Below, one piece after another: positions 11,488-53,215 of a DNA stretch of 64,000 nucleotides. Made by a program: the position numbers and the translations under genes. Source of the DNA: an uncultured bacterium (GTDB lineage Bacteria > UBA8481); contig CAZCME010000002.1 in assembly GCA_964499705.1 (NCBI GenBank), positions 124,001 through 188,000 on the forward strand. Reading direction: 5' to 3'. The stretch's first letter is position 1. Every line of letters starts with the position of its first letter. The notes under the pieces are model-generated. The model saw only the letters and a program-made list of their open reading frames with translations. It did not search any database and was not told where the DNA came from.

Positions 11488-11528
11488 GGCTCAGCGCTTT
11501 TTCGCGGAAGAGCGCGGGCGGATCGTCA

Positions 11529-13947: not shown

Positions 13948-13949
13948 CG

Positions 13950-25452: not shown

Positions 25453-25731
25453 ATGAGCTATCACATTTCGTCGGATTTCGAATATCACGTTCATCGGCGT
25501 CCGCCTTTTCTCTTCCGCATCCGGCGTTCCTTCTGGCATTTCTACCGCGATTCGCGCACCACGGCCGTCATGGTCCTCCTGGCCGTCCTCGTCGGGCTGA
25601 TCCTCTTCATGGGCCTGAACGGTTATGTCAATTACCTCGATCTCGGTCATCGCGCGGCGATCGACGCGGAGCACAGGCGGGCGGTGGAGCTCAAGCAGCG
25701 GCGCGATGAGGAACGCGGGGTCTTCCGGTGA
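25453..25731 (+). CDS. Small single-TM protein, paralog of 20506-20898
   Basis: MSYHISSDFEY..RRP versus MDYRTSARFDY..RRP; DLGHRAAIDAE; upstream TTGACG-18-CATCAT. Confidence 0.7.
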   Translation: MSYHISSDFEYHVHRRPPFLFRIRRSFWHFYRDSRTTAVMVLLAVLVGLILFMGLNGYVNYLDLGHRAAIDAEHRRAVELKQRRDEERGVFR

Positions 25732-27143: not shown

Positions 27144-27160
27144 TGCGCCGCAGATAGGTC

Positions 27161-27189
27161 TTGATGTCCCTGGTCGCAGGAACTATGCT
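27161..27189 (+). promoter_or_regulatory. Putative sigma70 promoter, leaderless geometry
   Basis: TTGATG-17 nt-TATGCT-6 nt-ATG. Confidence 0.65.
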
Positions 27190-27195
27190 TTCCAC

Positions 27196-30615: not shown

Positions 30616-32313
30616 TCATGTTCCATGGCAGTTCGCGCATCGATTCAATCCGAAGCTGACGCGCCCGTTATGACAGGCGCCGCAACTTTTTCCTTCGCGC
30701 ATGGATTTCATCGTCATCGCTTCACGCCATGGTTTATCGGACAGACCTTCATGGCAGACGAGGCAGGAATCCGACGCGTCGATATGCCGCTGGTGCGGAA
30801 AGCGCACGGCTCCGGGACTTTGCTGCATTTGAGGAAATACGATCGTCGAGTCGACCGCGATTCGATGGCAGAGGCCGCATGCCTTCGTCATGGAAAAAGC
30901 CGCTGAACCGTTATGGCATGTCCCGCATCGCGAGGTTGCATGACCGGTCGATGTATCCCGTCGATCGCCCAGCATCGAATAGAGGGCCGGGTGGCACGTT
31001 CCACATGCGGAGGAATGGGTCGAGTGCGGAAAGATCACCGACCAGGAATCGGAGATGACGACATTCCGGCCGACTCGCGCGCCCGTATCGACGGCCGCAT
31101 CCTCATCAGCGGGTATCCGCTCCGCGCGCACTTCGCCCGGATCGGTCGCGATCAGGATGGCCGCGATCCCGGCCGCGGCAATAGCCGCCAGCGATGCGCG
31201 GTCCCAGAGCGGGTGCTGCGGTCCCTCCTCCTTCTGCAGGAGTCCCAGCCAGAGGGCGCTGAACCGGAAGACGGTCACTCCGGCCGCGATGAGCGCCACG
31301 GTAACGGCGATCTCCTCCCAGCTGGGAACATAAGAATGTCCCTGGAAGGATTCCAGGCCCGTGATGGATACATTAAGCCGGTTCAGCATCACGCCGCCGA
31401 CGGTCAGGATTCCCGCCGCAAGAACCCTGTCAACGCGGAAGCCGCGGAACGCCAGCAGGAGAAATGGCAGCGCGGTGCCGATGAAAATCTCCAGGATCAA
31501 AAGGTTCCGCTCGTATTCCGATCCCGACCAGGAGACGCCGCGATAGAGGAGATCGCCGCACTGCAGCGCCGCGCGGACGATGAGCACCACCAAGAGCCCT
31601 TTCGCCAGCATCATCAGTTCCTTCGTTTCCAGCCGGCTCTGGAATCCGAAATGCGAGAGTGAATTCTCCACGATAACCATCGCGAATCCGCAGCAGACGG
31701 CGCTTGCGAAGAAGAGGACGGGCAGCATGGGCGTCGACCAGTACGGATGGAGCTTGCCGGGGACGATGAGAAAGAGCCCGCCGAGCGAGGACTGATGAAG
31801 TGTCGAGAGCAGGAGCCCGAGCCCTGCGAAGAAGGGCATGGCGCGGTGCAATTTCTCGCCGAGCGCGCGGAGCCCGAGCGCGCCGAGAATTTCAGGAGCG
31901 AGTTCGACAGCGAGTACGGTCGTGTACAGCATGACGCACCAGGCCACCTCGAACATGACGGAACGGGGATTCGGATAGAAGACCGGATGCCAGATATTCC
32001 ACGGGCGGCCGAGGTCGATGAGAAGCGCGATCACGGCGAGGCTGTAGCCGAGAAACGCCGTCAGTACCGCGCCGCGCGCGATTTCGGCATATCTCTTCTG
32101 CCGGAGGATGTAGACGGCGAAAGCGATGGCGAAGGAGCCTGCCGATGTGGCGACTCCCACCAGCATGTCGAATCCGATCCAGAGACCCCAGGGAAAGGCG
32201 TCGGAGAGATTGGTCGATGCGCCCAGGCCGAGCGCGAAGCGCCGCACGATCGCAACGCCGCCCACGGTCATGATGACTGAAAGCAGCGCGCGGTGAAACC
32301 GGGACGATTGCAT
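30616..32313 (-). CDS. NrfD/HybB-family membrane subunit fused to two c7-type triheme domains (6 CxxCH)
   Basis: LSDAFPWGLWIGFD, DLGRPW, SVMFEV, LSTLHQSSLG; C-terminal CGTCH, CGTCH, CGLCH, CLVCH, CGACH, CANCH; ATG 32313 overlaps upstream stop. Confidence 0.9.
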   Translation of the reverse strand: MQSSRFHRALLSVIMTVGGVAIVRRFALGLGASTNLSDAFPWGLWIGFDMLVGVATSAGSFAIAFAVYILRQKRYAEIARGAVLTAFLGYSLAVIALLIDLGRPWNIWHPVFYPNPRSVMFEVAWCVMLYTTVLAVELAPEILGALGLRALGEKLHRAMPFFAGLGLLLSTLHQSSLGGLFLIVPGKLHPYWSTPMLPVLFFASAVCCGFAMVIVENSLSHFGFQSRLETKELMMLAKGLLVVLIVRAALQCGDLLYRGVSWSGSEYERNLLILEIFIGTALPFLLLAFRGFRVDRVLAAGILTVGGVMLNRLNVSITGLESFQGHSYVPSWEEIAVTVALIAAGVTVFRFSALWLGLLQKEEGPQHPLWDRASLAAIAAAGIAAILIATDPGEVRAERIPADEDAAVDTGARVGRNVVISDSWSVIFPHSTHSSACGTCHPALYSMLGDRRDTSTGHATSRCGTCHNGSAAFSMTKACGLCHRIAVDSTIVFPQMQQSPGAVRFPHQRHIDASDSCLVCHEGLSDKPWREAMTMKSMREGKSCGACHNGRVSFGLNRCANCHGT

Positions 32314-33071
32314 CACGCTTTCTCTCCCGTAACGGCGCTTCTTGCCGCGACGGCATCGCGTCGTCGGACGATCCAGTGCAGTCCCGCCAGCATGACCGTG
32401 AGCGTGGAAATGAGCCCGGGAAGATGCGAAAGATAAGCGTCGGTGCGGGTGGGAAGGGGAGAAGAGGGAAGATCCAACCGGAGCCCCAGGTTGGCGAACG
32501 GAATGTCGGAAATCGTGAGGAGAGATGTTCCGCCCGCCTCGGTCATGCCGTAGATTCCGTCGACGTATCCGCCGCCGCCCATCCGCGCTCTTGCTTCCTG
32601 AACCATCGTGTTCCGCTCGCCGAATTTCAAGGCTCCCGTCGGACACGCGAAGGCGCATGCCGGAGGAAGACCTTCCGCCCGCCGCGTGGAACAGAGCTCG
32701 CATTTCCTCACGAGCGGCACGCGGCTCTCCCACTGATACCGCGGAATGCTGAACGGACAAGCCAGGAGACAGTATCGGCAACCCATGCAGAGATCGGACC
32801 GGTACGTCACAGCTCCGTCATCCTGCTTGCGGAAGGCCCCGACGGGACAGACCGACACGCACGCGGGATCGTTGCAGTGCATGCAGGACAGCCGGACAAA
32901 TCGACCTCCTTGCCGCCGGATCGCGAGCAGGGCGCGATCCGTCAGGACCGCTGTGGACGCGGACGAATCGCCGTTATTCGCCTCACGGCAGGCCGTGACG
33001 CAACCCGCGCATCCGATGCAGAGTTTCGCGTCGAAAAGAAACGCGACCTGATCGCCTCCTGGATCCGCCAT
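32313..33071 (-). CDS. 4Fe-4S dicluster protein (HybA/FdnH-like) with C-terminal TM
   Basis: CIGCAGC, CMHCNDPACVSVCP, CMGCRYC..ACP, KCELC..PACAFACPTGAL, EAGGTS. Confidence 0.92.
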   Translation of the reverse strand: MADPGGDQVAFLFDAKLCIGCAGCVTACREANNGDSSASTAVLTDRALLAIRRQGGRFVRLSCMHCNDPACVSVCPVGAFRKQDDGAVTYRSDLCMGCRYCLLACPFSIPRYQWESRVPLVRKCELCSTRRAEGLPPACAFACPTGALKFGERNTMVQEARARMGGGGYVDGIYGMTEAGGTSLLTISDIPFANLGLRLDLPSSPLPTRTDAYLSHLPGLISTLTVMLAGLHWIVRRRDAVAARSAVTGEKA

Positions 33072-35028: not shown

Positions 35029-38000
35029 CTACATTACTTCCCGTGCCTTCGTGGCTTCTTCGACGGCATCGCCTCCTTCGCCGGCGCGCGCCGCTCGCGG
35101 AGCGCCGTACATCATTTCCATGAAGACGCGCTCCCCGTCGGATCGGAAGCGGATCGCGCCGTTCGCATCCGTCCTGACAACCTCGATGCCGGCGTCCTGG
35201 AGCGACATTTCCGTCTGATTGGTGCCTCCTTCAATGTCGCGCATGAAGAGCTGGCGGTGGTCCAGGAGCGAATCGCGATAGGTCTCGCGCGAGCGCCCGC
35301 GTCCCGGAGGAGGCCGGAGATCGCGCGCATAACCGTAGGAGATGACGGCGGTGTCGGGTTTCACGGTTTCATACAGGTAAGGGATGTTGGCCTTGGAGGA
35401 ACCATGCGCGGGCACGGTGATGACGTCGGCGCGGAGTAGTTCCGGCTGGACGCGGAGAAGTTCCCTGACTCCGTCAGCCGTGATGTCGCTTGTCAGGAGA
35501 AACGCGGTGGAACCGTATTCGATCCGGAGGACGATGGAATTGTTGTTGGACGGTTTCAGGGGAAAATCGGGATTGGGATGGAGCGCGACGATCCGGAACC
35601 GCCCGTGCGGACCGTCTTCCGTCCAGAGCACCATGCCGCCGGTGACCTCGAAACATTCCGGAGGGCCCGTTGACGAGAAGACCGACGTCGGAGATATGAG
35701 CGCGATTTCGAAGAGGCGTCTCAATCCTGTCGCGCCGCGCATCGCGATCGAAGCTTCGGACAGGAGAAAGACGGCGTCCTCGAAGTCGGAATTCCTCCTG
35801 CCCTGCGCGACGTCGTTCTGGAGCGCGGCGCCTGCCTGCTGCAGGAACTCCTCGGGCGAGTCGAGATTCCACTTCCAGAAGGGAAGCGCGGCGTAGAATC
35901 GCTTGACGGGGAAGATCTTCAGGATTGCCGAAATGCCTCCGATGTCCTCCGGTGACGGACTGGTCATGATGAGCGCGTCCAATTGGCCGATGCGATCCTT
36001 CAGGAGATACTGCGCGATCGTACGCTCGCCCGTGTTCCATCCGCTCCGGAAATCGTTCGGCCCCGCGTCGACCAGGATCTGGGCGCCGCCCGGCGTCTCG
36101 ATGTGGATGGCGCTGCCGTATCGGACGGCGAGAACGTTCACGTGGAGATCTCCGGTTGGAGTCCGGGGCGCGAATCCCCAGACGGAAACCGCGAGGATCA
36201 GGCAGAACGCGGTCGCGAACGTTCCGATCGCGAAATGCTTCCGGCGCGCGCCGCCGACGCCCATGACGAGATCGTAGTAAAGGATTCTGCCGTGCCGCAG
36301 GAGCGGCTTGTTCCAGATGAAAAGAGCCAGCAGCGCGTAGTACGCGGCGAGCATCCTGGGCGTCATGGTCTGGATGAACGGATAGGGGAAAAAGATCGTC
36401 GTGATGTGCGTGGCCCAGAGGAAGAACCAGATGAGGAGATAATTCGCCGCGTTGAGGGTCAGGGCGACGTAGATGCCGACGACGGGAATCATGCCGATGA
36501 GAGACGCGAAGAGACCGAGCTGGATGATGATGTCGGAGAGGGGGATGGCGAGGAAATTGGCGAACGGTCCGGCGACGGAAGCGCGGCAGAAGTAGTACGC
36601 GGAGAGCGGTCCCATCATGCCGAGCTGGATTGCGACCTGCGCTCCGAGGAAGGCCTGGAGCCAGCCGGGGAGCCTGTTGGCGCCGGGGATTTTCTTGACG
36701 AGTTCCTCCGACGGCGGAGTGAGAAGTCCCAGGGACAGCATGGCCATGAAAGAAAGCGCGAAGGAAGGCTCGATCAGCCATTTCGGATTATTGAGAAGAA
36801 TCGCGGCGGCGGCGACTCCGATGGCCATGAGAAGCGACGCCCGGAGGCTTGCGCCGAGATAGACATAGGTGATGAGAACGAGCGAGTTCATGATGACGGC
36901 GCGGGTTGTGGGAGGTTCGGCGCCTGTAATGAAGCAGAAGATGATGAGGCAGCCGATGATGATGACCGTGTAGATCTTCTTCGGGATCCGGAGGATGACA
37001 AAGAGCGCCCACAGGGCTCCCGCGATGATGGTGACGTGGAGCCCGGAGACGGAAAGGATGTGCGTTGTGCCGGACCAGCGGAATTCGTCGAGAATGAATT
37101 GCCTCAGGTCGATCGGAGCATCCGCCGAAGAGCCTTCCGGCGCGGCGGGAGGCGCTTCTTCGAAGATGCAGCGGATTCCGTCAAGGCCCCGGTCAGTGCC
37201 GAGCGTGACGCCGGCGAGAAACGCGGACTCGGGAAACGGGATCGTGATTTTCATGATCCCCAGCATCCGCTTCTTGATTTCCAGCGACAGCTCGACGATC
37301 GGGTTCCCCTCGGATTCCTCACGGATCGCGATGGGCGGCTTCAGCGGGTCCCAGAACGGAATGCTCGCGGTCGCGAAGACTTCATGGTCGTGATAGAAGA
37401 GCTCCGGATCGAAGAGCCCGGGATTGTCGGCGGGCTTGAATCCGGTGAACTGCGCGTCGACTTCGACGACGTAACCGTAACCGTCGGGGAAGGCGAGCTT
37501 CTCGAATATTTCCCGGAAAGGTTTGTCGCGATCCGTCCATGCCGACGGCCGGAGATAGACCATGACGTTGCCTCCGGATACCTCATACGTCTGCCCGGAC
37601 TCCGGATCGGGCTCGATCATGAACGGTTCGATCGTCAGGACCACGACGCCGGGCCGGTCTTCGACGGGTCGGAATTCCGGTTCCGCCACGATGCGACCGA
37701 GCATCCGCGTGTGATCTTTCTTCCGGTCAAGATCCGGGAATTGCTCGATGAGAGTCTTGATATGCTGCGCGCGCGCGGAGGGATCGAACGGCGCGATGTA
37801 CGTCTTCTGCGCGTAGCGCCCATAACCGAGCGCGATCGCGGAGGCGCCGATCAGCAGATACACGAGGCCCCCGTGAATGCCGGCGCGACCTCGCTCCTGA
37901 GCGACGGCCATTCCCCATCCGATGATGCCGCAGAGAGCCGCCGCGGCGTACGCCGGCCAGACCTGGTCGATCGTCGCGCTCGCCGCCATCGCGATGGCGA

Positions 38001-38046
38001 TGCCGAAAATGAATGCGTAGGTGGAGAAGACGACTCGCTGGGCCAT
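35029..38046 (-). CDS. comEC: ComEC/Rec2 DNA-uptake channel homolog A (OB + Competence + degenerate MBL)
   Basis: NPGLFD, SGTTHILSVSGLHV, TRAVIM, SFALSF, ANFLAIP, ILVDAG, RTDANGAI. Confidence 0.9.
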   Translation of the reverse strand: MAQRVVFSTYAFIFGIAIAMAASATIDQVWPAYAAAALCGIIGWGMAVAQERGRAGIHGGLVYLLIGASAIALGYGRYAQKTYIAPFDPSARAQHIKTLIEQFPDLDRKKDHTRMLGRIVAEPEFRPVEDRPGVVVLTIEPFMIEPDPESGQTYEVSGGNVMVYLRPSAWTDRDKPFREIFEKLAFPDGYGYVVEVDAQFTGFKPADNPGLFDPELFYHDHEVFATASIPFWDPLKPPIAIREESEGNPIVELSLEIKKRMLGIMKITIPFPESAFLAGVTLGTDRGLDGIRCIFEEAPPAAPEGSSADAPIDLRQFILDEFRWSGTTHILSVSGLHVTIIAGALWALFVILRIPKKIYTVIIIGCLIIFCFITGAEPPTTRAVIMNSLVLITYVYLGASLRASLLMAIGVAAAAILLNNPKWLIEPSFALSFMAMLSLGLLTPPSEELVKKIPGANRLPGWLQAFLGAQVAIQLGMMGPLSAYYFCRASVAGPFANFLAIPLSDIIIQLGLFASLIGMIPVVGIYVALTLNAANYLLIWFFLWATHITTIFFPYPFIQTMTPRMLAAYYALLALFIWNKPLLRHGRILYYDLVMGVGGARRKHFAIGTFATAFCLILAVSVWGFAPRTPTGDLHVNVLAVRYGSAIHIETPGGAQILVDAGPNDFRSGWNTGERTIAQYLLKDRIGQLDALIMTSPSPEDIGGISAILKIFPVKRFYAALPFWKWNLDSPEEFLQQAGAALQNDVAQGRRNSDFEDAVFLLSEASIAMRGATGLRRLFEIALISPTSVFSSTGPPECFEVTGGMVLWTEDGPHGRFRIVALHPNPDFPLKPSNNNSIVLRIEYGSTAFLLTSDITADGVRELLRVQPELLRADVITVPAHGSSKANIPYLYETVKPDTAVISYGYARDLRPPPGRGRSRETYRDSLLDHRQLFMRDIEGGTNQTEMSLQDAGIEVVRTDANGAIRFRSDGERVFMEMMYGAPRAARAGEGGDAVEEATKAREVM

Positions 38047-38237
38047 CAGAGCACTTCGCCGGGTTCCTTGGACGGAGGGTTGTGAGGATAGAAACCCGCG
38101 TCCTTGTTCGACTGGAAACAGAAGTCGGCGGTGTAGAGTTTTCCCGTGATGAGGTAGTGGCCTCCGAGGACGACAAGGCCCAGCAACAGAGCCGAGCCCA
38201 GGATGATGATCAGGATTTTAGCGGCGTCGTCTTTCAC
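38046..38237 (-). CDS. Small single-TM protein coupled to comEC-A
   Basis: GTG start 7 nt after TATACT; one TM; QSNKDAGFYP; TGATG overlap with comEC-A. Confidence 0.75.
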   Translation of the reverse strand: MKDDAAKILIIILGSALLLGLVVLGGHYLITGKLYTADFCFQSNKDAGFYPHNPPSKEPGEVL

Positions 38238-38346
38238 GCCGCAGAGTATACGGCGTCAGGTCCCCGATTTGTCCATTTGAAAGTGGGCCGGGCATTTCAA
38301 GTTCTGAGTGGAGAGTCATTCAGGTTCCTGTATACTCCTGTGCTCC

Positions 38347-38511
38347 ATGCATGAATTTTCCGGCAAATTGATCCTGATTCTCGTTTTCCTCGCCTTTGTG
38401 GCCGGTGCCCTCGTGGTGACCTTCGACAGCAGCTATACGATCGAGGAGAATGTCGAATCCAACAAGGATTACTATCCTTCGGTGAAAGTGGACACCGGCA
38501 ATGGCCATTAA
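38347..38511 (+). CDS. Small single-TM protein, paralog of 38046-38237
   Basis: MHEFSGKLILILVFLAFVAGALVV..ESNKDYYP; TATACT upstream; overlaps next ATG by 11 nt. Confidence 0.7.
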   Translation: MHEFSGKLILILVFLAFVAGALVVTFDSSYTIEENVESNKDYYPSVKVDTGNGH

Positions 38512-41500
38512 GAATCTTCTGAACGATCTCGATTGGCGCGCGGCCGCGCGGCTGGCGGGCGCGCGGTTCAAGCATTGGCTGGCGAATCCCGTGCCCCTCA
38601 GTTTTTCCAAGATCGGCACGTATCAGAATTGTCCCTACAAATACCACGTGATCTATGATCAGCATCAGCCGGGAAAACCGAGCCCCGCTCTGGCTGTTGG
38701 AACCGTCATGCATAACACGCTGTATGCGTTCGAATCGATCACGGCGAAGGATCGAGGCTTCGCCGACCTGGAGCGGCTCTATCGCAGGCACTGGGACATG
38801 GAGATCGGCGAGCACAGGCGCCGATGGGGATCGAGTCTTTACCAGACGATCGCGGCGGAGAAAGGCTCCTCCGCGGACGAGCTCGAGAAGGAAGCGTTCG
38901 AAAAGGGGATTCTCGTCATCAAGAACTACTGGGCCAACGAGCGGAATAATCCCAACAAGGTGCGCTACGTGGAAAAGTGGGTCTTCGCCGAGCTCTTCAA
39001 ATACCACATCACGGGCCGGATCGACCGGATCGACCAGAGGCCGGACGGATCGTACCAGATCATCGACTACAAGACGGGCGAGCGCATCTACGACCAGACG
39101 ACGCTGAAAGATGCTTCGCGCGGTTATGGGCTCCAGGCGGGCCTCTACTATGAAATGAGCCGCGAAGCGTGGCGTGATCGCGTCTCAAGCTTCGTCTTTC
39201 GCTACCTGCAGAAGAAGCAGTCGATGCTTGATCATCTGTTGGAAAGCTGGATGGAGCAGATTCTGGCGGCGAGCCGTCAGGCTCTGGCGGGAAATGCTTC
39301 GGGCGCGGCGAGGCCGGAGCGCGCTCTGATGCGGGAGCGGATGATCGCAAAATTGGATGAGAATATCCGCGACAAGCTGCGCGAGAAACTGCTCGCGAAG
39401 TTCGCGGCGGAGCGGGAAGAGGAGCGGATCCGCGGCGAGCTGAAAAAGATTTCGCCTGATGAAGAAGAGCGCTTGCTCGAAGGGCTCGACGGAGCGAGCC
39501 TGTCCCAGGGGCGGGCGTTCGTGCGTGGGCTCAACAGATCGGCGGAGTCCCGCGTGAATGACGGCGTGCGAAATGCCATCGCGGATCCGATCCGCATGCG
39601 GGACTATTATGACGACGCGAACCGCGCTCTGGAGGCGATCCTGGCGCGCGTCGATCCTGTCAGATCCGCGGTGGCTGTGGACACGGTCCTCGACGGTTAC
39701 GAGGCGGCCCTCACGGCATGCGGGACGGGCGCATGGCCCGATCTCGATATCACGACGCGACAGACCATCTCCGGGGAGATCGTCGATATCATCCACCATC
39801 AGGATGCCAAGGACAGGACCGAACGAAAGCTGCGGAACATGGAGGCGGCCGAGCTTCGGAGTGTTGTCGAGGCGATGATTCCGGAATATCCGGAACTGGA
39901 TCTTTCGCACGGCAGGGGAATTGCCTCGGTGGTCGTCGAGGAGTTGAAAGCGTCGTATCCGCGGCACTTCGACGTCTATACGATCGACGACGTGGCGCGC
40001 CGGATGAGCGAAAATGCTCCGGAAGGATATCTCAGGCCCGATTACCGCGAGCGGATCGCGAGGGTGTTGGATGGGATCGAGAATAAGGCGACGATGCCGG
40101 GGGATGCCGCAGGGGCCGAGCGCCGCGGCGTCATGCTGAAACCTCTCCACGAAGCGTTCAAGCGCCTATTGAAGGGCGCCGTCCTGCTGGTGGCCGATTC
40201 GATCGGAAAGGGGCAAGCCGCGGATCTGACCGAGGTGGAGAAGCAGCGTTACATCCGGATTCTTACCACGCTGGGCGATCCCATCTTCACGCACCTCGCC
40301 GCTCAGAAGATCGCGGAAGCGCTCTCGAAGAGCGTCTTCGGCGAGATTCACTTCGCCGCGGGTGTCGTTCCCGTGACGAAACACATCACCGATCTCTTCG
40401 AGCGCCCCGACGTCGCCGCGATCCTGGCGTCTCAACATCCCGATTGGGATCCGGGGCGCGTCCAATCCGAGACGCAGTCGCTGATCGAGAAGCTCGATTG
40501 GCGCGACGTGGAGACGATTGTGGAAGACGCGTTCCGAATCTCGCGCGAGGAGTGGCGGAAATTCGTGGAACGCGTCATCGCGCCCGGCCTCCGTGATGCG
40601 GTGACGACGATCTCGTCGCCCGAAGCCGCGTCGACGGCGATCGAGGAGGCGGCGATTCTCTTCGAAAACCGGCTCCATCGCATCGTCGCGCACGACGTCG
40701 AGGTGCCGTACTCGCCGGAGATGCGCGAGAACATCCGTCGCGTCCTCGATGATGTTCAGGATGGAATTCGCAAAAAAGATTTCTCCATGGCCAAGGGTTC
40801 GCTCTGCGGCTGGTGCGAATACCAGTCCGGGTGCCCCGCGTGGTGCCAGCATCGCTCTCTCTGCGAGGGCGTCTGCAAGGATGTCTACAACTGCCGCAAG
40901 TGGTATGACGCGGAGACGGGTCGGCTCCGCGACGACAGGCCGAAGGAGATGAGCGCGGAGGAATTCGAGCGCAGGATCCGCGAGAAGTTCGTCACGACCG
41001 ATCGGTCGCTCTTCCGGCTTTCATTCTCCAAGATGAACACTTACGACCTCTGCCCCATGAACTATAGGAAACTCTATCTCGATCACTGCCCGCCGCAGCC
41101 GAAGGCGTTCTTCTCGATCGGGCTTTCGTACCACAGTACGATGGAGGATCTCTTCGTCTACGACGGTCCTCACAAGCATCCGTCCCTGGAGAAGGTCAAG
41201 GAGATGTTCAAGGCGAAATGGATTTCCGCAGGGTACCGGAGCGCTGAGGAGGAGGACTTTTATTTCCGCAGGGGGCTCCGGATGTGCGAGGACTACCACG
41301 CGAAGTTCATCACCGGGAAGTACCGGCGCGCGTACGCCACGGAGGAGTATTTCGAATTCCGCGTCGGTAAGACGCTCTTGAACGGATTCATCGACCGCGT
41401 CGACCGTGACGAGGACGGGCAGTTCACGATCGTCGATTACAAGACGAATCCGAAGATGTACACGCAGGAGGAGCTCGAGGACGATCAGCAGATGACGATG

Positions 41501-41917
41501 TATTACCTCGCGGCGCGGGAGGGAAAACTGGGTTGCTCGGGTTACAAGCCCTTCGAGCCGAAGCAGTTCGTTTTCCAGTTCGTCAACTTCTGCAAGGAAC
41601 TTGTGACGCACAGGAAGGCGCCGGACCTGGACGTCTTCGTGGATCGCGTTTCGCATTTCACCGACGAGATCGAGTGGAGGCAGAAGGCGTACAAGGCGAG
41701 CGGGTTCGATCCGCGCATCGGCATGCTTCTCTTTCCGCCGAAGGAGAACAAATACTGCCAGTCGTGCGATCACCACCATATCTGTCCCCTGAAATCGGAT
41801 GTGACCGTGAGCCAGGAGATCGAGAAGAAGGGGATCCACTTCGAGGACATCTTCGTCGATGCGGAAGCGATGGCGCAGTTCGACGACCGGACGGCTGAAG
41901 CGGATTCGAAGCAGTGA
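38501..41917 (+). CDS. Tandem double PD-(D/E)XK nuclease (two AddB/Cas4-like Fe-S domains) with large helical insertion
   Basis: LSFSKIGTYQNCP..GRIDRID..IIDYKTG..CGWCEYQSGCP and LSFSKMNTYDLCP..GFIDRVD..IVDYKT..CQSCDHHHICP. Confidence 0.9.
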   Translation: MAIKNLLNDLDWRAAARLAGARFKHWLANPVPLSFSKIGTYQNCPYKYHVIYDQHQPGKPSPALAVGTVMHNTLYAFESITAKDRGFADLERLYRRHWDMEIGEHRRRWGSSLYQTIAAEKGSSADELEKEAFEKGILVIKNYWANERNNPNKVRYVEKWVFAELFKYHITGRIDRIDQRPDGSYQIIDYKTGERIYDQTTLKDASRGYGLQAGLYYEMSREAWRDRVSSFVFRYLQKKQSMLDHLLESWMEQILAASRQALAGNASGAARPERALMRERMIAKLDENIRDKLREKLLAKFAAEREEERIRGELKKISPDEEERLLEGLDGASLSQGRAFVRGLNRSAESRVNDGVRNAIADPIRMRDYYDDANRALEAILARVDPVRSAVAVDTVLDGYEAALTACGTGAWPDLDITTRQTISGEIVDIIHHQDAKDRTERKLRNMEAAELRSVVEAMIPEYPELDLSHGRGIASVVVEELKASYPRHFDVYTIDDVARRMSENAPEGYLRPDYRERIARVLDGIENKATMPGDAAGAERRGVMLKPLHEAFKRLLKGAVLLVADSIGKGQAADLTEVEKQRYIRILTTLGDPIFTHLAAQKIAEALSKSVFGEIHFAAGVVPVTKHITDLFERPDVAAILASQHPDWDPGRVQSETQSLIEKLDWRDVETIVEDAFRISREEWRKFVERVIAPGLRDAVTTISSPEAASTAIEEAAILFENRLHRIVAHDVEVPYSPEMRENIRRVLDDVQDGIRKKDFSMAKGSLCGWCEYQSGCPAWCQHRSLCEGVCKDVYNCRKWYDAETGRLRDDRPKEMSAEEFERRIREKFVTTDRSLFRLSFSKMNTYDLCPMNYRKLYLDHCPPQPKAFFSIGLSYHSTMEDLFVYDGPHKHPSLEKVKEMFKAKWISAGYRSAEEEDFYFRRGLRMCEDYHAKFITGKYRRAYATEEYFEFRVGKTLLNGFIDRVDRDEDGQFTIVDYKTNPKMYTQEELEDDQQMTMYYLAAREGKLGCSGYKPFEPKQFVFQFVNFCKELVTHRKAPDLDVFVDRVSHFTDEIEWRQKAYKASGFDPRIGMLLFPPKENKYCQSCDHHHICPLKSDVTVSQEIEKKGIHFEDIFVDAEAMAQFDDRTAEADSKQ

Positions 41918-44900
41918 CGAAGCCGCTTCCGGATCCCACGGCGGTCTGGTTCGTCTTCTCCGCGGCGGGACAGCAGGGGCCCTACACGCCCGAGCAGATC
42001 ACCCGATGGCGGCGTGACGGGTTGGTTTCTGGCGAGTGGTATGTCTGGCGCGAAGGGTGGACCGACTGGCGCTTGCTCGATGAGGTCGACGAACTTCGCG
42101 TGCAGGCGACCGCGGCTCCGCTGCCTCCTGTCGCGCCTTCGCGAAAGGTTTCGGAAGAAGAGCGCAGGGAATTGCCGGGCTCGATCGTCCCGCAGGTTGC
42201 GGCGATGGAACTCAAGAAGGAATCGGCGAAGCAGGAAATGGCGCCCGCGTCGGCGCGCGAAGCGTCCTCCGTCGTCGCTTCCGTCGTCCCCGCCATTTCA
42301 AAACGTGCCGGAGCCGTGCAGCACAAGGTCCGCCTAAGTTTCAAGGACACCGTCACGATGTACTTGAAGCTCATCTTCATAAAGCTCATGCAGTATCTCG
42401 AGATCTGCGCGATCCCGTATCTCGTCGGAATCGGATTGGCCGTCGGATACCGCTTCAAGCTTCCGGCGGAATATTGGGAAATCGCCGAGTGGCTCGGCGT
42501 CGGAGGAGTCCTCCTCGCGTTCTACGTCCCTGTCATCGTATTCCATGCGCTGTATCTTTTCTATCTCAGGGCGAAAAATCCCGGGTACTCCATCGTCTTC
42601 TTTCTGGAGGATCGTCTCTCCGAGCGCAACTTCACGCGGCTCCTCGCGTTGTGCGCCATCGTTGTCTCTGTGGCATTCGGCGTCATCAACTACAGTTTCG
42701 CGACCGACATCTCCGATCCGCGCCACATCTCGAAATTCGTCGCCAAACCCTGGGAGACGAATCCCGTGACGTTGACGGGCACGATCATCCGGGAACCTGA
42801 ATTCCGCGACTACAGCGTCTGGCTCTATATCGAACCGACGAAGTTGAAGAAAGCGGGGGAGAAGACCACGAAGAATATCGACGGAGGTTTCGTTCTCGCC
42901 AAGATCAACAGGACGGTCGAGGGATTCGAGGAGTTCGAGTACGGAGAAGAAGTGAAGCTGATTTCGGATCTGCGGGAACCGGAGCCCGCGGTCAACCCGG
43001 GAACGTTCGATTACAAGACGCACCTCAACAACCGGAACATCTACGGGATCATGACCGTCAACGCCGCGGAGAACATTTCGGTCGTGAGCCGTCCCGATAA
43101 GAACGTCATCGTCGCGATCTCTCTCGCGGTGAAGGAGAAATTCCTGGGGATCATGAAGCAAACTCTGCCGTACCCTCATTCCTCATTCCAGGGCGGCATC
43201 ATCTACGGCTTGAAGACGGGACTGCCTCCGGAGCAGCATTTCGAGTTCAAGTGGGCCGGAATGGCGTGGGTGCTCGTTGTCGCCGGAGCGCACCTCCTGA
43301 TGGTTTACCTGACTCTGAAGATGATTCTCGAGAGCCTGCGCCCGAATCCGAAGGTCGGATTCGTCATCCTCTTCAGCATGCTCCTGGTATTCCTCATACT
43401 GACCGGCATTAATCCTCCGACGGTGCGCGCCTTCATCATGCTCTTCCTCTATGAATTCACCAAGACATTCCTGGGCCAGGATACCCGCGCGGCCGTGAAG
43501 AGCGCGATCTCCATCGCGGCGTTTCTCCTCCTCGCGTCCCACATGTATCCCTACTTCTCGCCGCTTATGATCTTCGATCCGACCGTGACGCTCTCTTTTG
43601 GAGCGGTTCTCTCGCTCTCGTTCCTCTCGCGCCCCGTCGAGCGGATGCTGCGGCGTTACGCGTACGGCTTGACGAGCGTTATCCTGCTGACCGGCCTAGT
43701 CGGGACGATGGCGACGATGAACATACTGCGGCCTCCGACACTTTCCCTCATGGGGCGACAGACTCTTCCCATCGCGGCCGCCACGCTCGCGCTGGCCGCG
43801 ATCACGATCGCCTGGAACAACCGGTTTCGCCGGAAGCACAATCTCGACCATGTCTACCTGGGATACAACGACCCGTCGCTCTTCCGAGGTTTCAGGCGCT
43901 GGGTCCATCCCGACTGTTTCTCCTACAACAATCTGCCGAAGTTCGTGCTCGGGTTTCTCGGCGCTCAGATCGCGATCCAGTTCGGAATGGTGCTGCCTCT
44001 GTCGAGCTGGTACTTCCAGCGATCTCCCGTCGGCGGATTCATCGCCAATGTCATCGCGTTCCCGGCGCTCGGCGCGATCATCCAGGTCGGGCTTGTCGCC
44101 GTTCTTCTTGGATGCATCCCGGTGATCGGAATCTACCTTGCGTTCCTGTTGAATGCCGCGGATTACCTCGGCATCGAGCTGTTGATGCAACTGGCACACT
44201 GGTCAAAGGTGCTCTTCCCCTATCCGATGGCGATGAAACCCGGCGCGTCCCAGATCTTTCTCTATTATTGCATCCTGGTCGGATTCATTCTCTTCGATCG
44301 CGTCTTCTACTCCATGGACAAGCGCGGGTACATGTCGCTTCGTGAACTTTTCAAGGAGAAGTACGACACGACGCACAAGACTTTCTACAGGATGCTTCTG
44401 CCGATCGTGAACGGTTCGATTCGGCAGGCTGTTGTCCTCCTGCTCTTCTGCGGCGCGGCGGGCTGGGGGGCGGTCGTTCTGGCCGAGGGAAGGACGCCCG
44501 ATCACGTCCGCGTCATCGTCATGGAGCTCGACGGCGGATCGGGAATCCTGATCGAGACTCCTTCCGGCGGGCATTACCTCGTCGACGCCGGTAACGTCGA
44601 TTGGCGCGGCACGTTCGATCCGGGCGAGCGAACGGTCGCGCCCGTTGTCCTGAATCAGCAGGTGGAACATCTCGAGGGCGTGATCATTTCATCCGTCCGG
44701 ACGGAGAATCTCGGAGGCATCGCGTTCCTGCTCGAGAATTTCACCATCGACCATCTCTATGTGCCTTTCGATCCGAAGCTGTTGATGCGCGCGGCCGTTT
44801 TCGACTCGGCCGCGTTCGAGCAGGCGACCGGCAAGCCGCCGAAGTCGAAGAGCGACCGGACGCTTCTCGGCGCGATGGAGAAGATCCGATTGGTGGTCCG

Positions 44901-45552
44901 CGAGAAGGAATTGAACGTGCGCCGGGTGAACGGCGGTGACGTGATCCTGAAGGAGGAAGGATGTATCATCACGGCGCTGACGCCGATCGATCAGATTCCG
45001 AGAACGGTCGCTGTGGTCGCCGTGGACACGCACGTGCCCGCGGACACCCTGCTGGCGCAATCGCTTGCCGCTGCCTCCGCGGAGCCCGAGCCGAACATGA
45101 AGCGGGCCGTGATCGCTTTCCGGATCGCGTGCGGAGCGAAGACGATTCTTGTCGCCAACGACATCTACGACAGGGAAGAGCAGGCACTGGTGGCAAGCGA
45201 GAAGAATCTCAGTGCGGACGTCCTCCTGATACCTTCGCACGCCAAGGACTGGGCTTCGAGCGAGGAATTTGTCACCGCCGTGAAACCGAAATACGCGATC
45301 GCGCAGTATCGCTCGCCGTCGGGACGCTATGCGCAACCGGACGGAGCAGACGAGATTTTCGCACGGTATGAAGCGGCCGGCGCACAGGTGTTGCGGACGG
45401 ATCGGAACGGCGGCGTCGTGATCGACGTATGGCCGAGCGGCCGGATTCTGGTGGAACCTATGATGCATGCCGGCGGAACTGTGGCGGCGGAGTCCGCCGG
45501 CGAAGCGGGAATCGAACAGTCGGCTGTGAGGAGCGAAGGTACGGGGCTTTGA
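41914..45552 (+). CDS. comEC: ComEC/Rec2 homolog B with N-terminal GYF_2 (DUF4339)-like domain
   Basis: QQGPY..VWREGWTDW; NPGTFDY, VLVVAGAHL, VRAFIM, TLSFGAV, YLVDAG, RTDRNGGV; GTGA overlap with nuclease gene. Confidence 0.88.
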   Translation: MTKPLPDPTAVWFVFSAAGQQGPYTPEQITRWRRDGLVSGEWYVWREGWTDWRLLDEVDELRVQATAAPLPPVAPSRKVSEEERRELPGSIVPQVAAMELKKESAKQEMAPASAREASSVVASVVPAISKRAGAVQHKVRLSFKDTVTMYLKLIFIKLMQYLEICAIPYLVGIGLAVGYRFKLPAEYWEIAEWLGVGGVLLAFYVPVIVFHALYLFYLRAKNPGYSIVFFLEDRLSERNFTRLLALCAIVVSVAFGVINYSFATDISDPRHISKFVAKPWETNPVTLTGTIIREPEFRDYSVWLYIEPTKLKKAGEKTTKNIDGGFVLAKINRTVEGFEEFEYGEEVKLISDLREPEPAVNPGTFDYKTHLNNRNIYGIMTVNAAENISVVSRPDKNVIVAISLAVKEKFLGIMKQTLPYPHSSFQGGIIYGLKTGLPPEQHFEFKWAGMAWVLVVAGAHLLMVYLTLKMILESLRPNPKVGFVILFSMLLVFLILTGINPPTVRAFIMLFLYEFTKTFLGQDTRAAVKSAISIAAFLLLASHMYPYFSPLMIFDPTVTLSFGAVLSLSFLSRPVERMLRRYAYGLTSVILLTGLVGTMATMNILRPPTLSLMGRQTLPIAAATLALAAITIAWNNRFRRKHNLDHVYLGYNDPSLFRGFRRWVHPDCFSYNNLPKFVLGFLGAQIAIQFGMVLPLSSWYFQRSPVGGFIANVIAFPALGAIIQVGLVAVLLGCIPVIGIYLAFLLNAADYLGIELLMQLAHWSKVLFPYPMAMKPGASQIFLYYCILVGFILFDRVFYSMDKRGYMSLRELFKEKYDTTHKTFYRMLLPIVNGSIRQAVVLLLFCGAAGWGAVVLAEGRTPDHVRVIVMELDGGSGILIETPSGGHYLVDAGNVDWRGTFDPGERTVAPVVLNQQVEHLEGVIISSVRTENLGGIAFLLENFTIDHLYVPFDPKLLMRAAVFDSAAFEQATGKPPKSKSDRTLLGAMEKIRLVVREKELNVRRVNGGDVILKEEGCIITALTPIDQIPRTVAVVAVDTHVPADTLLAQSLAAASAEPEPNMKRAVIAFRIACGAKTILVANDIYDREEQALVASEKNLSADVLLIPSHAKDWASSEEFVTAVKPKYAIAQYRSPSGRYAQPDGADEIFARYEAAGAQVLRTDRNGGVVIDVWPSGRILVEPMMHAGGTVAAESAGEAGIEQSAVRSEGTGL

Positions 45553-49639: not shown

Positions 49640-51034
49640 TCAGCCTTTCTCCCTTGTATCCTCGAACAGAGAGATCCGGGTCACGGAGAGACCATACTTG
49701 CGGATCTTTCGATATAAGGTCGCGCGATCGATGCCGAGCTGCTTCGCCGCCTGCGAAATGTTGCCTTTTGTCATCGCCAGGATTCGTTCGATATGGGCCT
49801 TCTCGACCTCTTCGAGGTTTCCCGGTGATGTCGAGATGGATTTTTCTCGAACCGGATTCGCGCCACGCTCATCGCCTTCGAGCCGCAGATCGTTCACGTC
49901 GACAACGGAACCGACGGCCAGGAGAACGGCGCGGTCGATGACGTTGCGGAGCTCGCGGACGTTGCCGGGCCAGGAGTGAGCGCGCAGCCGGTTCAGAGCG
50001 TCCGGCGTAAGGCTCATCACGGATCGCTTCTCCGCGAGCGCCGCGGCCGCGAGGAATTTCTTCGCCAGCGGAGCGATCTCCTCCGGGCGGTTGCGCAGGG
50101 GAGGAATCCGGATCGGCACTACGTTCAGGCGGTAATACAGGTCCTCGCGGAATCGTCCCGCGCGCACTTCCTGTTGGAGGTCGCGGTGCGTCGCCACGAC
50201 GACGCGAAAATCGATGTTCAACGATCGTTCCCCGCCGAGGCGCGTGATCTCGTGCGTCTCGATGACCCGCAGGAGCGCGATCTGCATCGGAGGTGGAATC
50301 TCGCCGATCTCGTCCAGGAAGAGAGTGCCTCCGGCGGCCAACTCGATGCGCCCCTTGCGCCTGAACTGCGCGCCTGTGAACGCGCCCTTCTCGTGCCCGA
50401 ATAGTTCGGACTCCAGGAGCGTGTCGGAAATCGCGCCGCAGTTGACGGGCACGAAGGGGAAGAAGCGGCGGCGACCCAGGTTGTGGATCGTGCGCGCCAG
50501 GAGTTCCTTGCCGGTCCCGGATTCGCCCAGGAGGATGACGGGCGCGTCCGAGTCGGCGATCGTCTCGACGAACTTCACGATCTCCTTCATCGCGCGGCTT
50601 TCCGCGACGATGCTGCTTCCGTTCTCGACAGGTTCGGTGATGAGGAGCTTGTCGTTGACGGCCTGGCGGATGAGCGCCGTGAACTCGTCCGGCTGGAAGG
50701 GCTTGACGATGTAATCGTACGCGCCTTCCTTCATCGCGCGGACCGCGGTATCGACGGACGCATAGGCGGTCATGAAGATGACCGTGAGATCCTTCGCGAT
50801 CCTGCGGATCCTCCGGTGCAGTTCGAGCCCGTCCATTCCGGGCAGGCGGATATCGAGAAGCGCCACGTCGAAGCGTGCCGCCGTGGCGGTGCCGGCTTGA
50901 ATCGACGTTCCCAGCTTGCGTAGAGCTTCCTCCGCATCGCCCGCGGTTTCCGCATCCCATCCCTCCTTGCTGAACCACTCCGCGAGCCCCTCGCGGACGC
51001 TGGCCTCGTCATCGACTATGAGGACGCGGATCAT
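49640..51034 (-). CDS. Sigma54-dependent response regulator (NtrC/AtoC family)
   Basis: REC (VDDE, LDIRLPGMDG), GESGTGKE, GAFTGA, WPGNVREL, Fis HTH. Confidence 0.95.
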   Translation of the reverse strand: MIRVLIVDDEASVREGLAEWFSKEGWDAETAGDAEEALRKLGTSIQAGTATAARFDVALLDIRLPGMDGLELHRRIRRIAKDLTVIFMTAYASVDTAVRAMKEGAYDYIVKPFQPDEFTALIRQAVNDKLLITEPVENGSSIVAESRAMKEIVKFVETIADSDAPVILLGESGTGKELLARTIHNLGRRRFFPFVPVNCGAISDTLLESELFGHEKGAFTGAQFRRKGRIELAAGGTLFLDEIGEIPPPMQIALLRVIETHEITRLGGERSLNIDFRVVVATHRDLQQEVRAGRFREDLYYRLNVVPIRIPPLRNRPEEIAPLAKKFLAAAALAEKRSVMSLTPDALNRLRAHSWPGNVRELRNVIDRAVLLAVGSVVDVNDLRLEGDERGANPVREKSISTSPGNLEEVEKAHIERILAMTKGNISQAAKQLGIDRATLYRKIRKYGLSVTRISLFEDTREKG

Positions 51035-53214
51035 GGCTCCGGTTCATCCTTCTTCGCCTCGTTCGGCGTTTCGGCCGGATCGTCAGATTCCGTGCGTGAG
51101 GCGAGATCACTGCCGGGTGCGGCGCGGCCGGTGAAGATCGAGGGGTTCAAGGGAAATACATCGGGATCGACAAGGACGAAGAACATGTGCCAGATGAGAA
51201 TCGCTCCGGCGGCCAGGAGCGCTTCATAGAAGTGGATGGCTTCGCTCACGTTCACCGCAAGGCGCGGGAGAAATTCCGGAAACCAGAGCACCAATCCCGT
51301 CACGGCCATCACGATCGTGCCCCAGACGAGCGCCCAGTATTCGAGCTTCTCGAAGTACGAGAAATGGCCGAAGTGAGGATGTTGCGGGCGGCGTCCGACC
51401 GCATGCAGCCCATGATCGAGTGCGGATTTCGGATCCGATGTCCTTGGCCGCATCCGGTCCAGGAACTTTCGTCCGCGCTTCGAAAGGGCGATCCAGAGAA
51501 TGTGTCCGATCGCCGCGACCATCAGAGTGACGCCCGCGATGCGATGCGCGATTCCCCTGATCTCTTCGGTCAGTCCCAGCCACGCCAGGCCGCCGACCCA
51601 GGAAGCATCGGGGAAGGCGAGCGCGAAGCCGGTGACGACAAGCGCGACGAAGGAGAGGCCGAGGACGAGATGCTGGATCGATTCGATCCGCGTGAACCGG
51701 AGTGGGCCGGCTTCCAGGGACGATGAGATTCGAAGACGGATCGATGGGAACATCAGGATCGTGATCCAGGCGATCATGCCTCCGAGCGTGCCGCTGATGA
51801 TGAGGCGATAGGCGATCCGGACGAGGTTGGTGAGCCAGTGGTCGGGATACGACGTGTGAACCGGACCCGTCGCGAAGCGATCCGTCGCGTCGCTGTGGCA
51901 GCGGCCGCAGGTGTTGCGGCGGTTGGAGGCATGGATCGTGGAGGTCGTGTCGGATTCCGCGTTGATCCTGTGCACTCCGTGGCAGTCGGTGCAGACCGCC
52001 GCAGTCGTCGAACGGCCGCGCGTGGCCAGGCCGTGGTAGGAATCGAGATAGGTCTTGCCGACCTTGCCGGGCAGATCGTATTTCACGCCGAGCACAAGAC
52101 GTTCGTGACATCCCAGGCAGAGCGTCTGCGCGACCGCGAGGCGATAGGTCGTGGAACGGGGATCGGTCGCGGAGAGGATCGAATGTTCGCCGTGGCAATC
52201 GGAACAGGCCGGCGCTTCGTGCGCTCCGCGGGCCGCCGCGCGGCCGTGAGCCGACGCGTTGTATTCGGCGGCCTCCTGCTGGTGGCATCGCCCGCACGTC
52301 GCCGACTGCCTCTGGAAATTCGAAGCGGACGCGGCGTCCTTGCGGGGGAGAATGCGATGCGCGCCGTGGCAGTCGACGCAGGTCGCGGCCACAGCCAGTC
52401 CTCGCTCCGGTACCGCCCGAGCGTGGACCGACGCGGCGTATGAATCGGCGTGAATGCTCATCGTCATTCCGCGCGCCGCCAAAAACTGCGCGTCGGCATG
52501 GCAGGAGAGGCACGCCGCGGCGACGCGCACGGGATGAACCTGCGATGCCGGGTCGTCCGGTCCGCGGATGTCATGGGTGCCGTGGCAGGTCACGCATGTG
52601 GGCGCGCCCGTATCGCCTTCCCCTCGCATCGTTCCGTGAACGGCGACGTTGAAGGCGCCGGCTTCATCCACGTGGCATCGTCCGCATGCCACCTTCGCGA
52701 GCGGTGCGTCGCCTGCTGACTTCGATCCGTGCGGACGCGCGGCGCTCGTATGGCAATCCACGCAGGACCGTCCGTCATGCGCGGTGCCCGGCGGAATGGG
52801 ATGAGGTTCGACAGCCTTCTTCCCATCATGGCATTTCCGGCACGACGCGTCCGTGACGCCGCGCGGCGCCGGCGGAGGGGAGACCACGCGCATCGCCACG
52901 CCGTCCGGCACGAGCCGCGCTCCTAGGAAGAGCTGCGAGTGGAACCGTTCCGGCGGGAGCCGTCCGTCGTTATGGCAGTTTCCGCAGCGCACCGCCGTCG
53001 GTCTTCCGATGTGCGGTACCGTCTCCGCGTCGAGATGGCACGACACGCAGGAAAGCGAACCGTGCATGGACCGGGAGAAGAGAGCGGGATCGATATAGAT
53101 CGTCGCATCCGAACCGTTCTTCAAGGCTCCGATCGAATGGCACGTCACGCATGACGTGTTGGTCGCGCCGCCCGATAAAACGAGAGTGACGAGAAGCGCC
53201 GACAGGACGCTCAC
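51031..53214 (-). CDS. Multiheme cytochrome c (14 CxxCH) fused to FdnI-like cytochrome b
   Basis: 14 CxxCH counted; C-terminal RF..IQH, AHRIAG, EKLEYWALVWG, IHFYEA..WH. Confidence 0.9.
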   Translation of the reverse strand: MSVLSALLVTLVLSGGATNTSCVTCHSIGALKNGSDATIYIDPALFSRSMHGSLSCVSCHLDAETVPHIGRPTAVRCGNCHNDGRLPPERFHSQLFLGARLVPDGVAMRVVSPPPAPRGVTDASCRKCHDGKKAVEPHPIPPGTAHDGRSCVDCHTSAARPHGSKSAGDAPLAKVACGRCHVDEAGAFNVAVHGTMRGEGDTGAPTCVTCHGTHDIRGPDDPASQVHPVRVAAACLSCHADAQFLAARGMTMSIHADSYAASVHARAVPERGLAVAATCVDCHGAHRILPRKDAASASNFQRQSATCGRCHQQEAAEYNASAHGRAAARGAHEAPACSDCHGEHSILSATDPRSTTYRLAVAQTLCLGCHERLVLGVKYDLPGKVGKTYLDSYHGLATRGRSTTAAVCTDCHGVHRINAESDTTSTIHASNRRNTCGRCHSDATDRFATGPVHTSYPDHWLTNLVRIAYRLIISGTLGGMIAWITILMFPSIRLRISSSLEAGPLRFTRIESIQHLVLGLSFVALVVTGFALAFPDASWVGGLAWLGLTEEIRGIAHRIAGVTLMVAAIGHILWIALSKRGRKFLDRMRPRTSDPKSALDHGLHAVGRRPQHPHFGHFSYFEKLEYWALVWGTIVMAVTGLVLWFPEFLPRLAVNVSEAIHFYEALLAAGAILIWHMFFVLVDPDVFPLNPSIFTGRAAPGSDLASRTESDDPAETPNEAKKDEPEP

Positions 53215-53215
53215 T

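Follow-up and report, generated by a model that had tools for sequence, protein, structure and literature searches.

The locus described here lies at positions 35,029 to 45,552 of a 64,000-nt stretch of DNA (the window) from contig CAZCME010000002.1 of an uncultured bacterium of the UBA8481 lineage, and is built around two genes for channel proteins of the ComEC family. The open reading frame (ORF) list divides it into two back-to-back arms. The left arm, on the minus strand, comprises small-A (38046..38237), which has a GTG start and encodes a single-pass membrane protein of 63 aa, and the gene for the 1005-aa ComEC-A (35029..38046). The right arm, on the plus strand, begins with small-B (38347..38511), encoding a second single-pass membrane protein of 54 aa (MHEFSGK...SNKDYYPSVK), continues with a double PD-(D/E)XK nuclease of the Cas4/AddB type (38501..41917, 1138 aa) and ends with ComEC-B (41914..45552, 1212 aa, GTG start). 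Both channel proteins are of an undescribed large ComEC variant that is named ComEC-L here. The twin layout is two separate ComEC-L modules, A and B, joined back to back in this genome.

The genes of each arm are coupled by overlapping junctions. The stop codon of small-A and the start of ComEC-A share a single nucleotide (TGATG), small-B and the nuclease gene overlap by 11 nt, and the nuclease stop and the ComEC-B start overlap by 4 nt (GTGA). There are two candidate start codons for small-B, at 38308 and 38347, and comparison with its orthologues fixes the ATG at 38347. This is also how an earlier note on this DNA, made from the sequence alone, had described the genes, their domains and the overlaps between them, and the ORF list, the Pfam matches and the sequence bear it out.

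The arms are separated by a divergent intergenic spacer of 109 bp (38238..38346). TATACT occurs within it on both strands, at 38331-38336 on the plus strand and 38250-38245 on the minus strand, as part of GTATAC/TATACT elements (38330-38336 and 38245-38251) that each lie 7-10 nt ahead of a start codon. These are candidate promoter elements, and the transcripts from both arms could be nearly leaderless. The earlier note claimed a divergent promoter region of ~110 bp; the spacer and its TATACT on each strand stand, while a scan of the region for sigma-70-like promoters gave a site on the plus strand only, and the count (2 sites against 2.8 expected) is not above chance. GTATAC occurs four times in the window against 1.55 expected, a number reached in 6 of 100 shuffles, and two of the four are in the spacer. 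All four sites fall into two intergenic pairs, at 8297-8338 and 38246-38335, spaced by 36 and 84 nt respectively. The paired GTATAC might act as a regulatory or promoter element common to the two regions.

A Logan contig of 1580 nt from a public run (X2, possibly the source sample itself) spans positions 37578-39157 with no differences. The divergent junction is therefore not peculiar to one assembly and, as far as can be told, is no assembly artefact. No RNA run is present among the public runs listed as containing the locus.

The ComEC-L channel proteins and their small membrane partners

The ComEC-L proteins are ~940-1200 aa in length. ComEC-A and ComEC-B both meet the cut-off of 23 bits for the Pfam Competence domain (PF03772), with 147 and 95.5 bits respectively. 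With DUF4131 (PF13567, cut-off 31.6 bits) ComEC-B scores 63.5 bits and ComEC-A 21.5 bits, though the corresponding region of ComEC-A aligns with the family. Both pass the NCBIfam subfamily domain TIGR00360 (76 and 41.7 bits, cut-off 36.5) and both miss the cut-off of the equivalog TIGR00361 (138.2 and 93.1 bits against 190.05). ComEC-A starts with N-terminal transmembrane helices, followed by an OB-like region, the Competence transmembrane domain (residues 318-578) and a C-terminal metallo-β-lactamase (MBL)-like domain. ComEC-B has a GYF_2 domain (PF14237) at residues 12-61 (35.7 bits against a cut-off of 25.8), then a linker, an OB/DUF4131 region (212-387), a Competence domain that contains an insert, and again a C-terminal MBL-like domain. 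A domain scan finds no GYF_2 in the B-type orthologues at loci L017, L020 and L021. The N-terminal extension of a nuclease homologue (P0006) looked GYF-like by eye, as though the domain had hopped between proteins; this candidate was dropped, since neither Pfam (E ≤ 1e-6) nor BLAST against the GYF domain of ComEC-B gave a match.

The MBL-like domain has lost its metal-binding motifs. When the last 440 residues of 15 ComEC-L proteins are aligned with ten stand-alone MBL proteins of the same systems, motif II is lost in 15/15 of the former, together with most of motif I and of HHGS; motif II reads SPSPED in ComEC-A and SVRTEN in ComEC-B. The stand-alone proteins, two of which are from this genome, retain DVGQGD, HPHxDHxGG, GD and HHGS in 10/10 cases. 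Neither ComEC-A nor ComEC-B matches PF00753 at E ≤ 0.01. In a wide search with ComEC-A the best 46 homologues (786-1234 aa) lack PF00753 and PF12706, and 39 of the next 49 have them, as taken from precomputed Pfam lists. The aspartates of motif II are needed for the nuclease activity of ComEC and for transformation in Bacillus subtilis, according to the available part of PMC8579336.

ComEC-A and ComEC-B are ~30% identical. They are deep paralogues that each have orthologues elsewhere, and both retain 39 invariant columns of the family, so that neither looks decayed; the possibility, raised by the earlier note, that one is a decaying duplicate is thus set aside. That note also asked for another comEC in the genome, and there is one. 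The third copy, on a different contig, is minimal (545 aa, Competence domain only), and the same genome contains dprA. A separate route for transformation is plausible on account of these two genes. Three comEC copies are unusual; the note had taken ComEC to be normally single-copy, in agreement with the accessible part of a 2018 survey (PMC6299819), where every strain but one has a single Competence-domain protein in its proteome. In the phylum of G042, 4/4 genomes have two or three ComEC-L genes. Both channel types share one string of genes at locus L018 (genome G018, 10850-13963), where three genes come after the ComEC-L operon in the same orientation; they encode a protein of 184 aa that has no match in Pfam, a protein with an SLBB domain and a canonical ComEC of 706 aa.

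The small membrane proteins form a single family that has no match in Pfam, NCBIfam or PADLOC. Fifteen aligned members of the 50-100 aa class have one helix with an invariant glycine, followed by the motif (Y/F)-x-x-E...SN(K/R)xYYP. A hidden Markov model (HMM) of the family has two matches only in its own genome of 4.67 Mb, small-B with 86 bits and small-A with 63 bits. Small-A and small-B are paralogous, as the earlier note had claimed, with one hydrophobic helix each.

Wherever upstream DNA is present, a small gene lies ahead of ComEC-L, separated from it by the nuclease gene at most. This applies to 10/10 genome loci, to 12/12 metagenome loci (three more being cut by contig ends) and to 4/4 relatives within the host phylum; the loci are not all independent, as some are from the same organisms. 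Orthologues of small-B head the same operon at L017, L020, L021 and L043. A profile search of 1.84 billion cluster representatives gave 195 matches at E ≤ 1e-3, 57 of them at E ≤ 1e-10, and nearly all of these proteins are 45-106 aa long.

Some members of the family are fused to larger domains. Ten of the 150 matches listed are 140-169 aa long; the two of these that were scanned have a C-terminal ComEA-type HHH_3 domain, and two more look alike by eye. In P0178, P0248 and P0223 the small-protein module is at the C-terminus of a soluble domain (~220-620 aa) with DHH- and GGGH-like motifs. For this soluble domain Pfam gives nothing, and BLAST and hhalign comparisons with the DHH proteins of the operons are not significant. 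A fold search with it has only DHH/DHHA1 enzymes among its ten best matches (NrnA, DhhP, RecJ-like, GdpP and PggH, Z 10.4-7.2), including 4ls9 (Z 9.1, root-mean-square deviation 2.8 over 112 residues); the model is poor, with a predicted local distance difference test (pLDDT) score of 51, and best Z values of 7-8 are common by chance. Both types of fusion fit an anchor that would have its N-terminus inside and its C-terminus outside the cell.

Prediction of a complex of ComEC-A (residues 1-937) with small-A gives a score of 0.55, against 0.00 for the best of three controls. At least 86% of the contacts agree between runs, and the pLDDT of the partner is at least 67. In a benchmark, 58 of 80 solved complexes passed the mark, as did 2 of 110 mismatched pairs; scores of 0.60 or below were seen in just 7 of the 80 solved complexes and in both of the mismatches that passed. 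The model thus lends weak support to binding of small-A to ComEC-A.

The double nuclease

The nuclease of module B matches PDDEXK_1 (PF12705) with 185 bits over two stretches (cut-off 22). In alignments of eight long forms, and of long with short forms, both domains retain D...(D/E)xK and Q...Y. These read GRIDRID, IIDYKTG and LQAGLYY in the first domain, and IDRVD, VDYKTN and QQMTMYY in the second. Each domain has one cysteine ahead of it and CxxCx5C behind, in a conserved pattern. The C-terminal domain (835-1100) has C851 and C1086-x2-C1089-x5-C1095. The N-terminal domain (~30-256) is closed by C769-x2-C772-x5-C778 only after an all-helical insert of ~470 aa (242-720), and is followed by an additional stretch of four cysteines (C782, C788, C792 and C798). 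The Cas4 profiles of PADLOC match 147-256 and 731-780 separately, which fits a first domain whose closing cysteine motif is parted from the rest by the insert. The earlier note had called the protein a double Fe–S nuclease. The two nuclease domains stand, and predicted iron–sulphur clusters would follow from the conserved cysteine patterns, which are what that part of the claim rests upon.

An AlphaFold model of the nuclease is of middling quality (pLDDT 69.8, predicted template-modelling score 0.56), with most of the insert in the 80s. The best Foldseek matches are AdnA/AdnB, ACE1 (an Argonaute-associated member of the Cas4 family), AddB, Dna2 and Exo5. For the helical insert (245-720) the best match in the ESM Atlas is 0.75, which is below a useful level. 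Hydropathy analysis shows no transmembrane helix and the nuclease is predicted to be cytoplasmic. No helicase or UvrD-like motor domain is found in it among Pfam and NCBIfam matches.

The long form is rare. A search of 5.8 billion proteins found six relatives with 38-51% identity; the other seven matches are helicase–nuclease fusions in which only the C-terminal nuclease domain aligns, with 18-23% coverage. Among 185,579 species genomes there are three loci with the long nuclease, two labelled Candidatus Lindowbacteria and one labelled as an uncultured bacterium. In 79 metagenome loci gathered with the alignment of the nuclease C-domain as query, a double nuclease of at least 250 bits is present in 58, of which 20 also have a neighbouring gene for ComEC-L, the small protein or MBL. 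Two further proteins of 1301-1372 aa (L057, 5668-9786; L089, 5881-9786) have five PDDEXK_1 stretches each and no ComEC nearby, stringing more than two Cas4-like nuclease domains together in a single chain.

Distribution and gene neighbourhood of the two modules

The two modules are distributed differently. A-type ComEC-L is present in 5/5 genomes of the host phylum. In the four relatives the ComEC-A orthologue is 54-57% identical and in 4/4 has an orthologue of small-A upstream. Downstream there is a ComEA-like gene in 3/4 and an MBL gene in 2/4; one of the ComEC-A contigs ends early, and one locus has neither gene. Module A is read as vertically inherited, the lineage's own copy. The right arm is found in this genome only (1/5) within the phylum, and the four relatives have no long nuclease at E ≤ 1e-30 and likewise no B-type ComEC. 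The B operon is intact (small gene, long nuclease, ComEC) at L017 (genome G017), L020 and L021, which belong to distant uncultured lineages. Module B was probably acquired horizontally, because it is present in one of five genomes of the phylum and yet is common to distant lineages. In a tree made by a quick search, with the canonical outgroups on long branches, ComEC-B groups with the ComECs of L017, L020 and L021 (SH-like approximate likelihood ratio support of 100), and ComEC-A branches close to the base together with two pairs that have no nuclease gene next to them.

The divergent arrangement of five genes, which the earlier note expected to be conserved in relatives, is seen in no other genome examined. 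On the other side of the B operon there is a Mutator-family transposase at L017 and a transketolase at L021, with no second ComEC; upstream of the operon at L020 there is ~1 kb only, with an ORF for an unrelated membrane protein. The transposase gene (L017, 13900-15096) is divergent from small-B, ~530 bp upstream of it and at the end of the contig. Genomes with the B operon have further large ComECs elsewhere, and a gene for a small membrane protein lies ahead of every full-length one. The three B-type genomes searched with ComEC-A (G017, G041 and G042) each have at least one further ComEC-L pair. The family extends over a number of little-known lineages, with source labels that include Lindowbacteria, Hydrogenedentota, Verrucomicrobia, Kiritimatiellia and Elusimicrobia, and its members are at present annotated only as 'ComEC/Rec2 family' or as hypothetical. 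What remains supported from the earlier proposal is a conserved, ComEC-centred system for handling DNA that has small membrane proteins and a double nuclease of its own.

The same parts recur in four gene orders across L018, L019 and metagenome loci. The first is small gene, ComEC, a short double nuclease and MBL; in the second, MBL and then the nuclease follow the small gene and ComEC; in the third the nuclease precedes the small gene and ComEC. The fourth and longest comprises small gene, ComEC, a ComEA-like gene (2 x HHH_3), MBL, nuclease and a DHH phosphoesterase. In the genome studied here the corresponding genes are elsewhere. A cluster on one strand (G000:C2:335885-338438; L131 4886-8047) contains ndk and, after it, two ComEA-like genes, the first with 2 x HHH_3, separated by an intact membrane MBL. 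It is ~170 kb from module A on the same contig, and a second stand-alone MBL is present on contig C3. The operon of the ancestor has apparently been broken up in this genome, because relatives have the ComEA-like and MBL genes directly after ComEC-A. At L038 an ndk-like gene, judged by its N-terminal sequence alone, is close to a small/ComEC pair.

No gene for DprA, RecA, SSB or a helicase is linked to the system in the loci examined, and neither is a secretion ATPase or a relaxase. PADLOC-DB 2.0 gives only weak generic domain matches (Cas4, E 1e-10 to 1e-3; the MBL domain of LmuA and DRT), and none for the small proteins or the neighbouring genes, a negative that covers the families listed there.

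Several other genes in the window are of note. A 253-aa protein with an SNase domain followed by a ComEA-type HHH_3 domain is encoded at 27094-27855 (+), ~7 kb from ComEC-A, and is a candidate extracellular DNA-binding nuclease from its domains. Two paralogues of 467 and 471 aa (20895-22298 and 25728-27143) combine TPR with a C-terminal cyclic-nucleotide-binding domain, and have an ABC-2-type membrane protein between them. Multihaem cytochrome c7/c3, NrfD-like and 4Fe-4S proteins are encoded at 30616-32781 and 51031-58248 beside a sigma-54 two-component pair, and constitute a respiratory island around the ComEC locus.

Possible function and comparison with known systems

The reading preferred here, held tentatively and as slightly less than an even prospect, is that the two separate ComEC-L modules import DNA in a manner coupled to its degradation in the cytoplasm. 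ComEA-type proteins and the stand-alone MBL would capture and process DNA outside the membrane, and ComEC-L would conduct a single strand inwards. The small protein would be an anchor bound to the channel, with the predicted orientation of N-terminus in and C-terminus out. In module B the double nuclease would take the incoming strand at the cytoplasmic exit and degrade it, so that the system might feed on DNA for nucleotide salvage and not serve transformation. Import for degradation is favoured because the linked enzymes are hydrolases (MBL, double nuclease and DHH), because no DprA, SSB, RecA or helicase is linked, and because a separate minimal comEC and dprA have been kept. A more specific version is possible, and is offered with greater reserve. 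It is an import-and-digest machine of ComEC-L, an obligate small subunit and a channel-coupled cytoplasmic double nuclease (joined by DHH in some lineages), making up a DNA-feeding path apart from transformation, in which the separate MBL would cut outside and the imported strand would be converted to nucleotides at the exit. What the sequences show directly is the set of genes, their conservation and coupling, the lost MBL motifs beside intact MBL paralogues, and the fusions; the substrate, topology, binding and fate of the DNA are all deduced from gene content and models.

Several observations weigh against this reading. The catabolic view derives from gene content, and a Cas4/AddB-type nuclease could equally trim or gate a strand for recombination. 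Where the double nuclease has 4 kb or more of DNA on each side (18 metagenome loci), ComEC-L is near in 6 and in 12 there is none; the neighbours of these ComEC-L-free nucleases are housekeeping genes (TrkH, TPR proteins and metabolic genes) and are uninformative. The changes in the MBL-like domain of ComEC-L show that the usual metal site has gone, from which loss of all activity does not follow. The DHH identity of the domain fused to the small protein is weak and serves as a lead only. For the horizontal origin of module B, the codon GC content at third positions of arm B is that of the host, and the marks of a mobile element are missing: there is no tRNA in the window, there are no notable flanking repeats, and no integrase or transposase is found among the neighbours scanned.

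The strongest competitor, to which a minor but appreciable probability is given, is that module B is a device for transformation whose nuclease trims, gates or hands over the strand for recombination in the manner of AddB or Cas4. End processing is what nucleases of these types do, and the fold matches point to them; dprA is present in the genome, and the ComEC family provides the transformation channel, as set out in the portions available of PMC8579336 and PMC6299819. The loci themselves speak otherwise, with hydrolases (MBL and DHH) as the linked partners and no helicase, DprA, RecA or SSB linked in any of those examined, and the separate minimal comEC may already provide for transformation. 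It is improbable that the two ComECs and the two small proteins assemble into a single heteromeric or twin channel served by the nuclease, as the earlier note proposed. In such an assembly the strands of a duplex might, for example, be conducted separately, one by each ComEC, and each be cut by a different nuclease domain. The two apparently intact active sites resemble those of AddAB and AdnAB, where each of the two nuclease sites cuts one strand, and G017, G041 and G042 also have at least one further ComEC-L pair. As to the pairing of A with B as such, nothing supports it beyond the adjacency of the arms, with their common 109-bp divergent region, in one genome. The B operon has no adjoining second ComEC-L at L017 and L021 (the ~1 kb upstream at L020 being all that is present there), the A-like pairs of genomes with the B operon are on other contigs, and module A stands alone in 4/4 phylum relatives. 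ComEC is moreover argued to be monomeric in the part available of a 2026 electron cryomicroscopy paper (PMC13539106).

Two readings depart further from uptake. Module B would be a barrier for defence if a ComEC-like sensor or channel acted with the nuclease to destroy nucleic acid as it entered. A patchy, horizontal-looking distribution, the Mutator-family transposase beside the operon in G017 and the occurrence of Cas4-like domains in defence systems (as in the weak PADLOC domain matches) would agree with this. It is nonetheless thought quite unlikely, given that no PADLOC system protein is matched beyond the generic Cas4 or MBL domains, that the neighbours are not defence genes, and that it is accompanied by ComEA-like DNA receptors, as is typical of uptake. 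The least probable of the alternatives is that ComEC-L exports DNA or handles the cell's own DNA (in release of extracellular DNA or in repair), or conducts a substrate other than DNA. Both direction and substrate are assigned indirectly, and the MBL nuclease site that has been lost is the one by which the strand left outside the cell is normally degraded. Set against that, ComEA-type HhH binders and nucleases recur with the system, one HhH domain is fused to the predicted outer side of the small protein, and neither a secretion ATPase nor a relaxase is encoded with it at the loci examined.

Whether DNA is taken up mainly as information or as food is an old question, made difficult to test by the use of one ComEC for both purposes. 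ComEC-L, with its own nuclease site lost, a fixed small partner and cytoplasmic nucleases or phosphoesterases, occurs in the same genome as a separate minimal comEC and dprA, and so offers a candidate catabolic route that is separable. It also brings new parts for the study of the channel, namely a small protein that is a candidate accessory subunit, a double Cas4-like nuclease without a helicase, and a pseudo-enzyme MBL domain that may now serve docking or gating. In the literature within reach, which excludes most subscription journals, no description was found of a family of ComEC paralogues with a degenerate MBL domain, of a small ComEC-associated membrane protein, or of a ComEC-linked double Cas4-like nuclease.

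Compared with canonical ComEC/Rec2 (B. subtilis, Moorella/Neomoorella), ComEC-L has the same elements in the same order, comprising OB (DUF4131), the Competence channel and a C-terminal MBL fold. It differs in being ~200-450 aa longer and below the cut-off of TIGR00361, in the loss of the MBL motifs, and in always being encoded together with a small membrane protein. There are two or three paralogues per genome in the four genomes of the G042 phylum, whereas the canonical protein is single-copy save in one strain in what is available of the 2018 survey (PMC6299819).

The nearest precedent is ComEC with EndA of Streptococcus pneumoniae, where an MBL-like domain with substituted ligands is combined with a separate membrane-located nuclease, according to the accessible text of PMC8579336. 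In the present system the putative outer nuclease is an MBL protein of the ComEC type and not EndA, and the substitutions in ComEC-L are far more radical, leaving motif II without any histidine or aspartate. A cytoplasmic double nuclease, as predicted, and a small subunit are added.

Both nuclease domains resemble AddB, AdnA/AdnB and Cas4 in fold, in motifs, and in the cysteine ahead and CxxCx5C behind. AddAB and AdnAB also bring two nuclease domains together in one machine, as does the 1138-aa protein. The latter has both in a single chain and no detected helicase or motor; its long form has the ~470-aa helical insert in the first domain and the additional four-cysteine stretch, and its gene is located between those for a small membrane protein and ComEC. 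ComEA-like genes follow ComEC-L at several loci, and some members of the small family resemble ComEA itself, with an N-terminal anchor and a C-terminal HHH_3 domain. Small-A and small-B differ from ComEA in having no DNA-binding domain, and comprise the anchor and the short motif (Y/F)-x-x-E...SN(K/R)xYYP.

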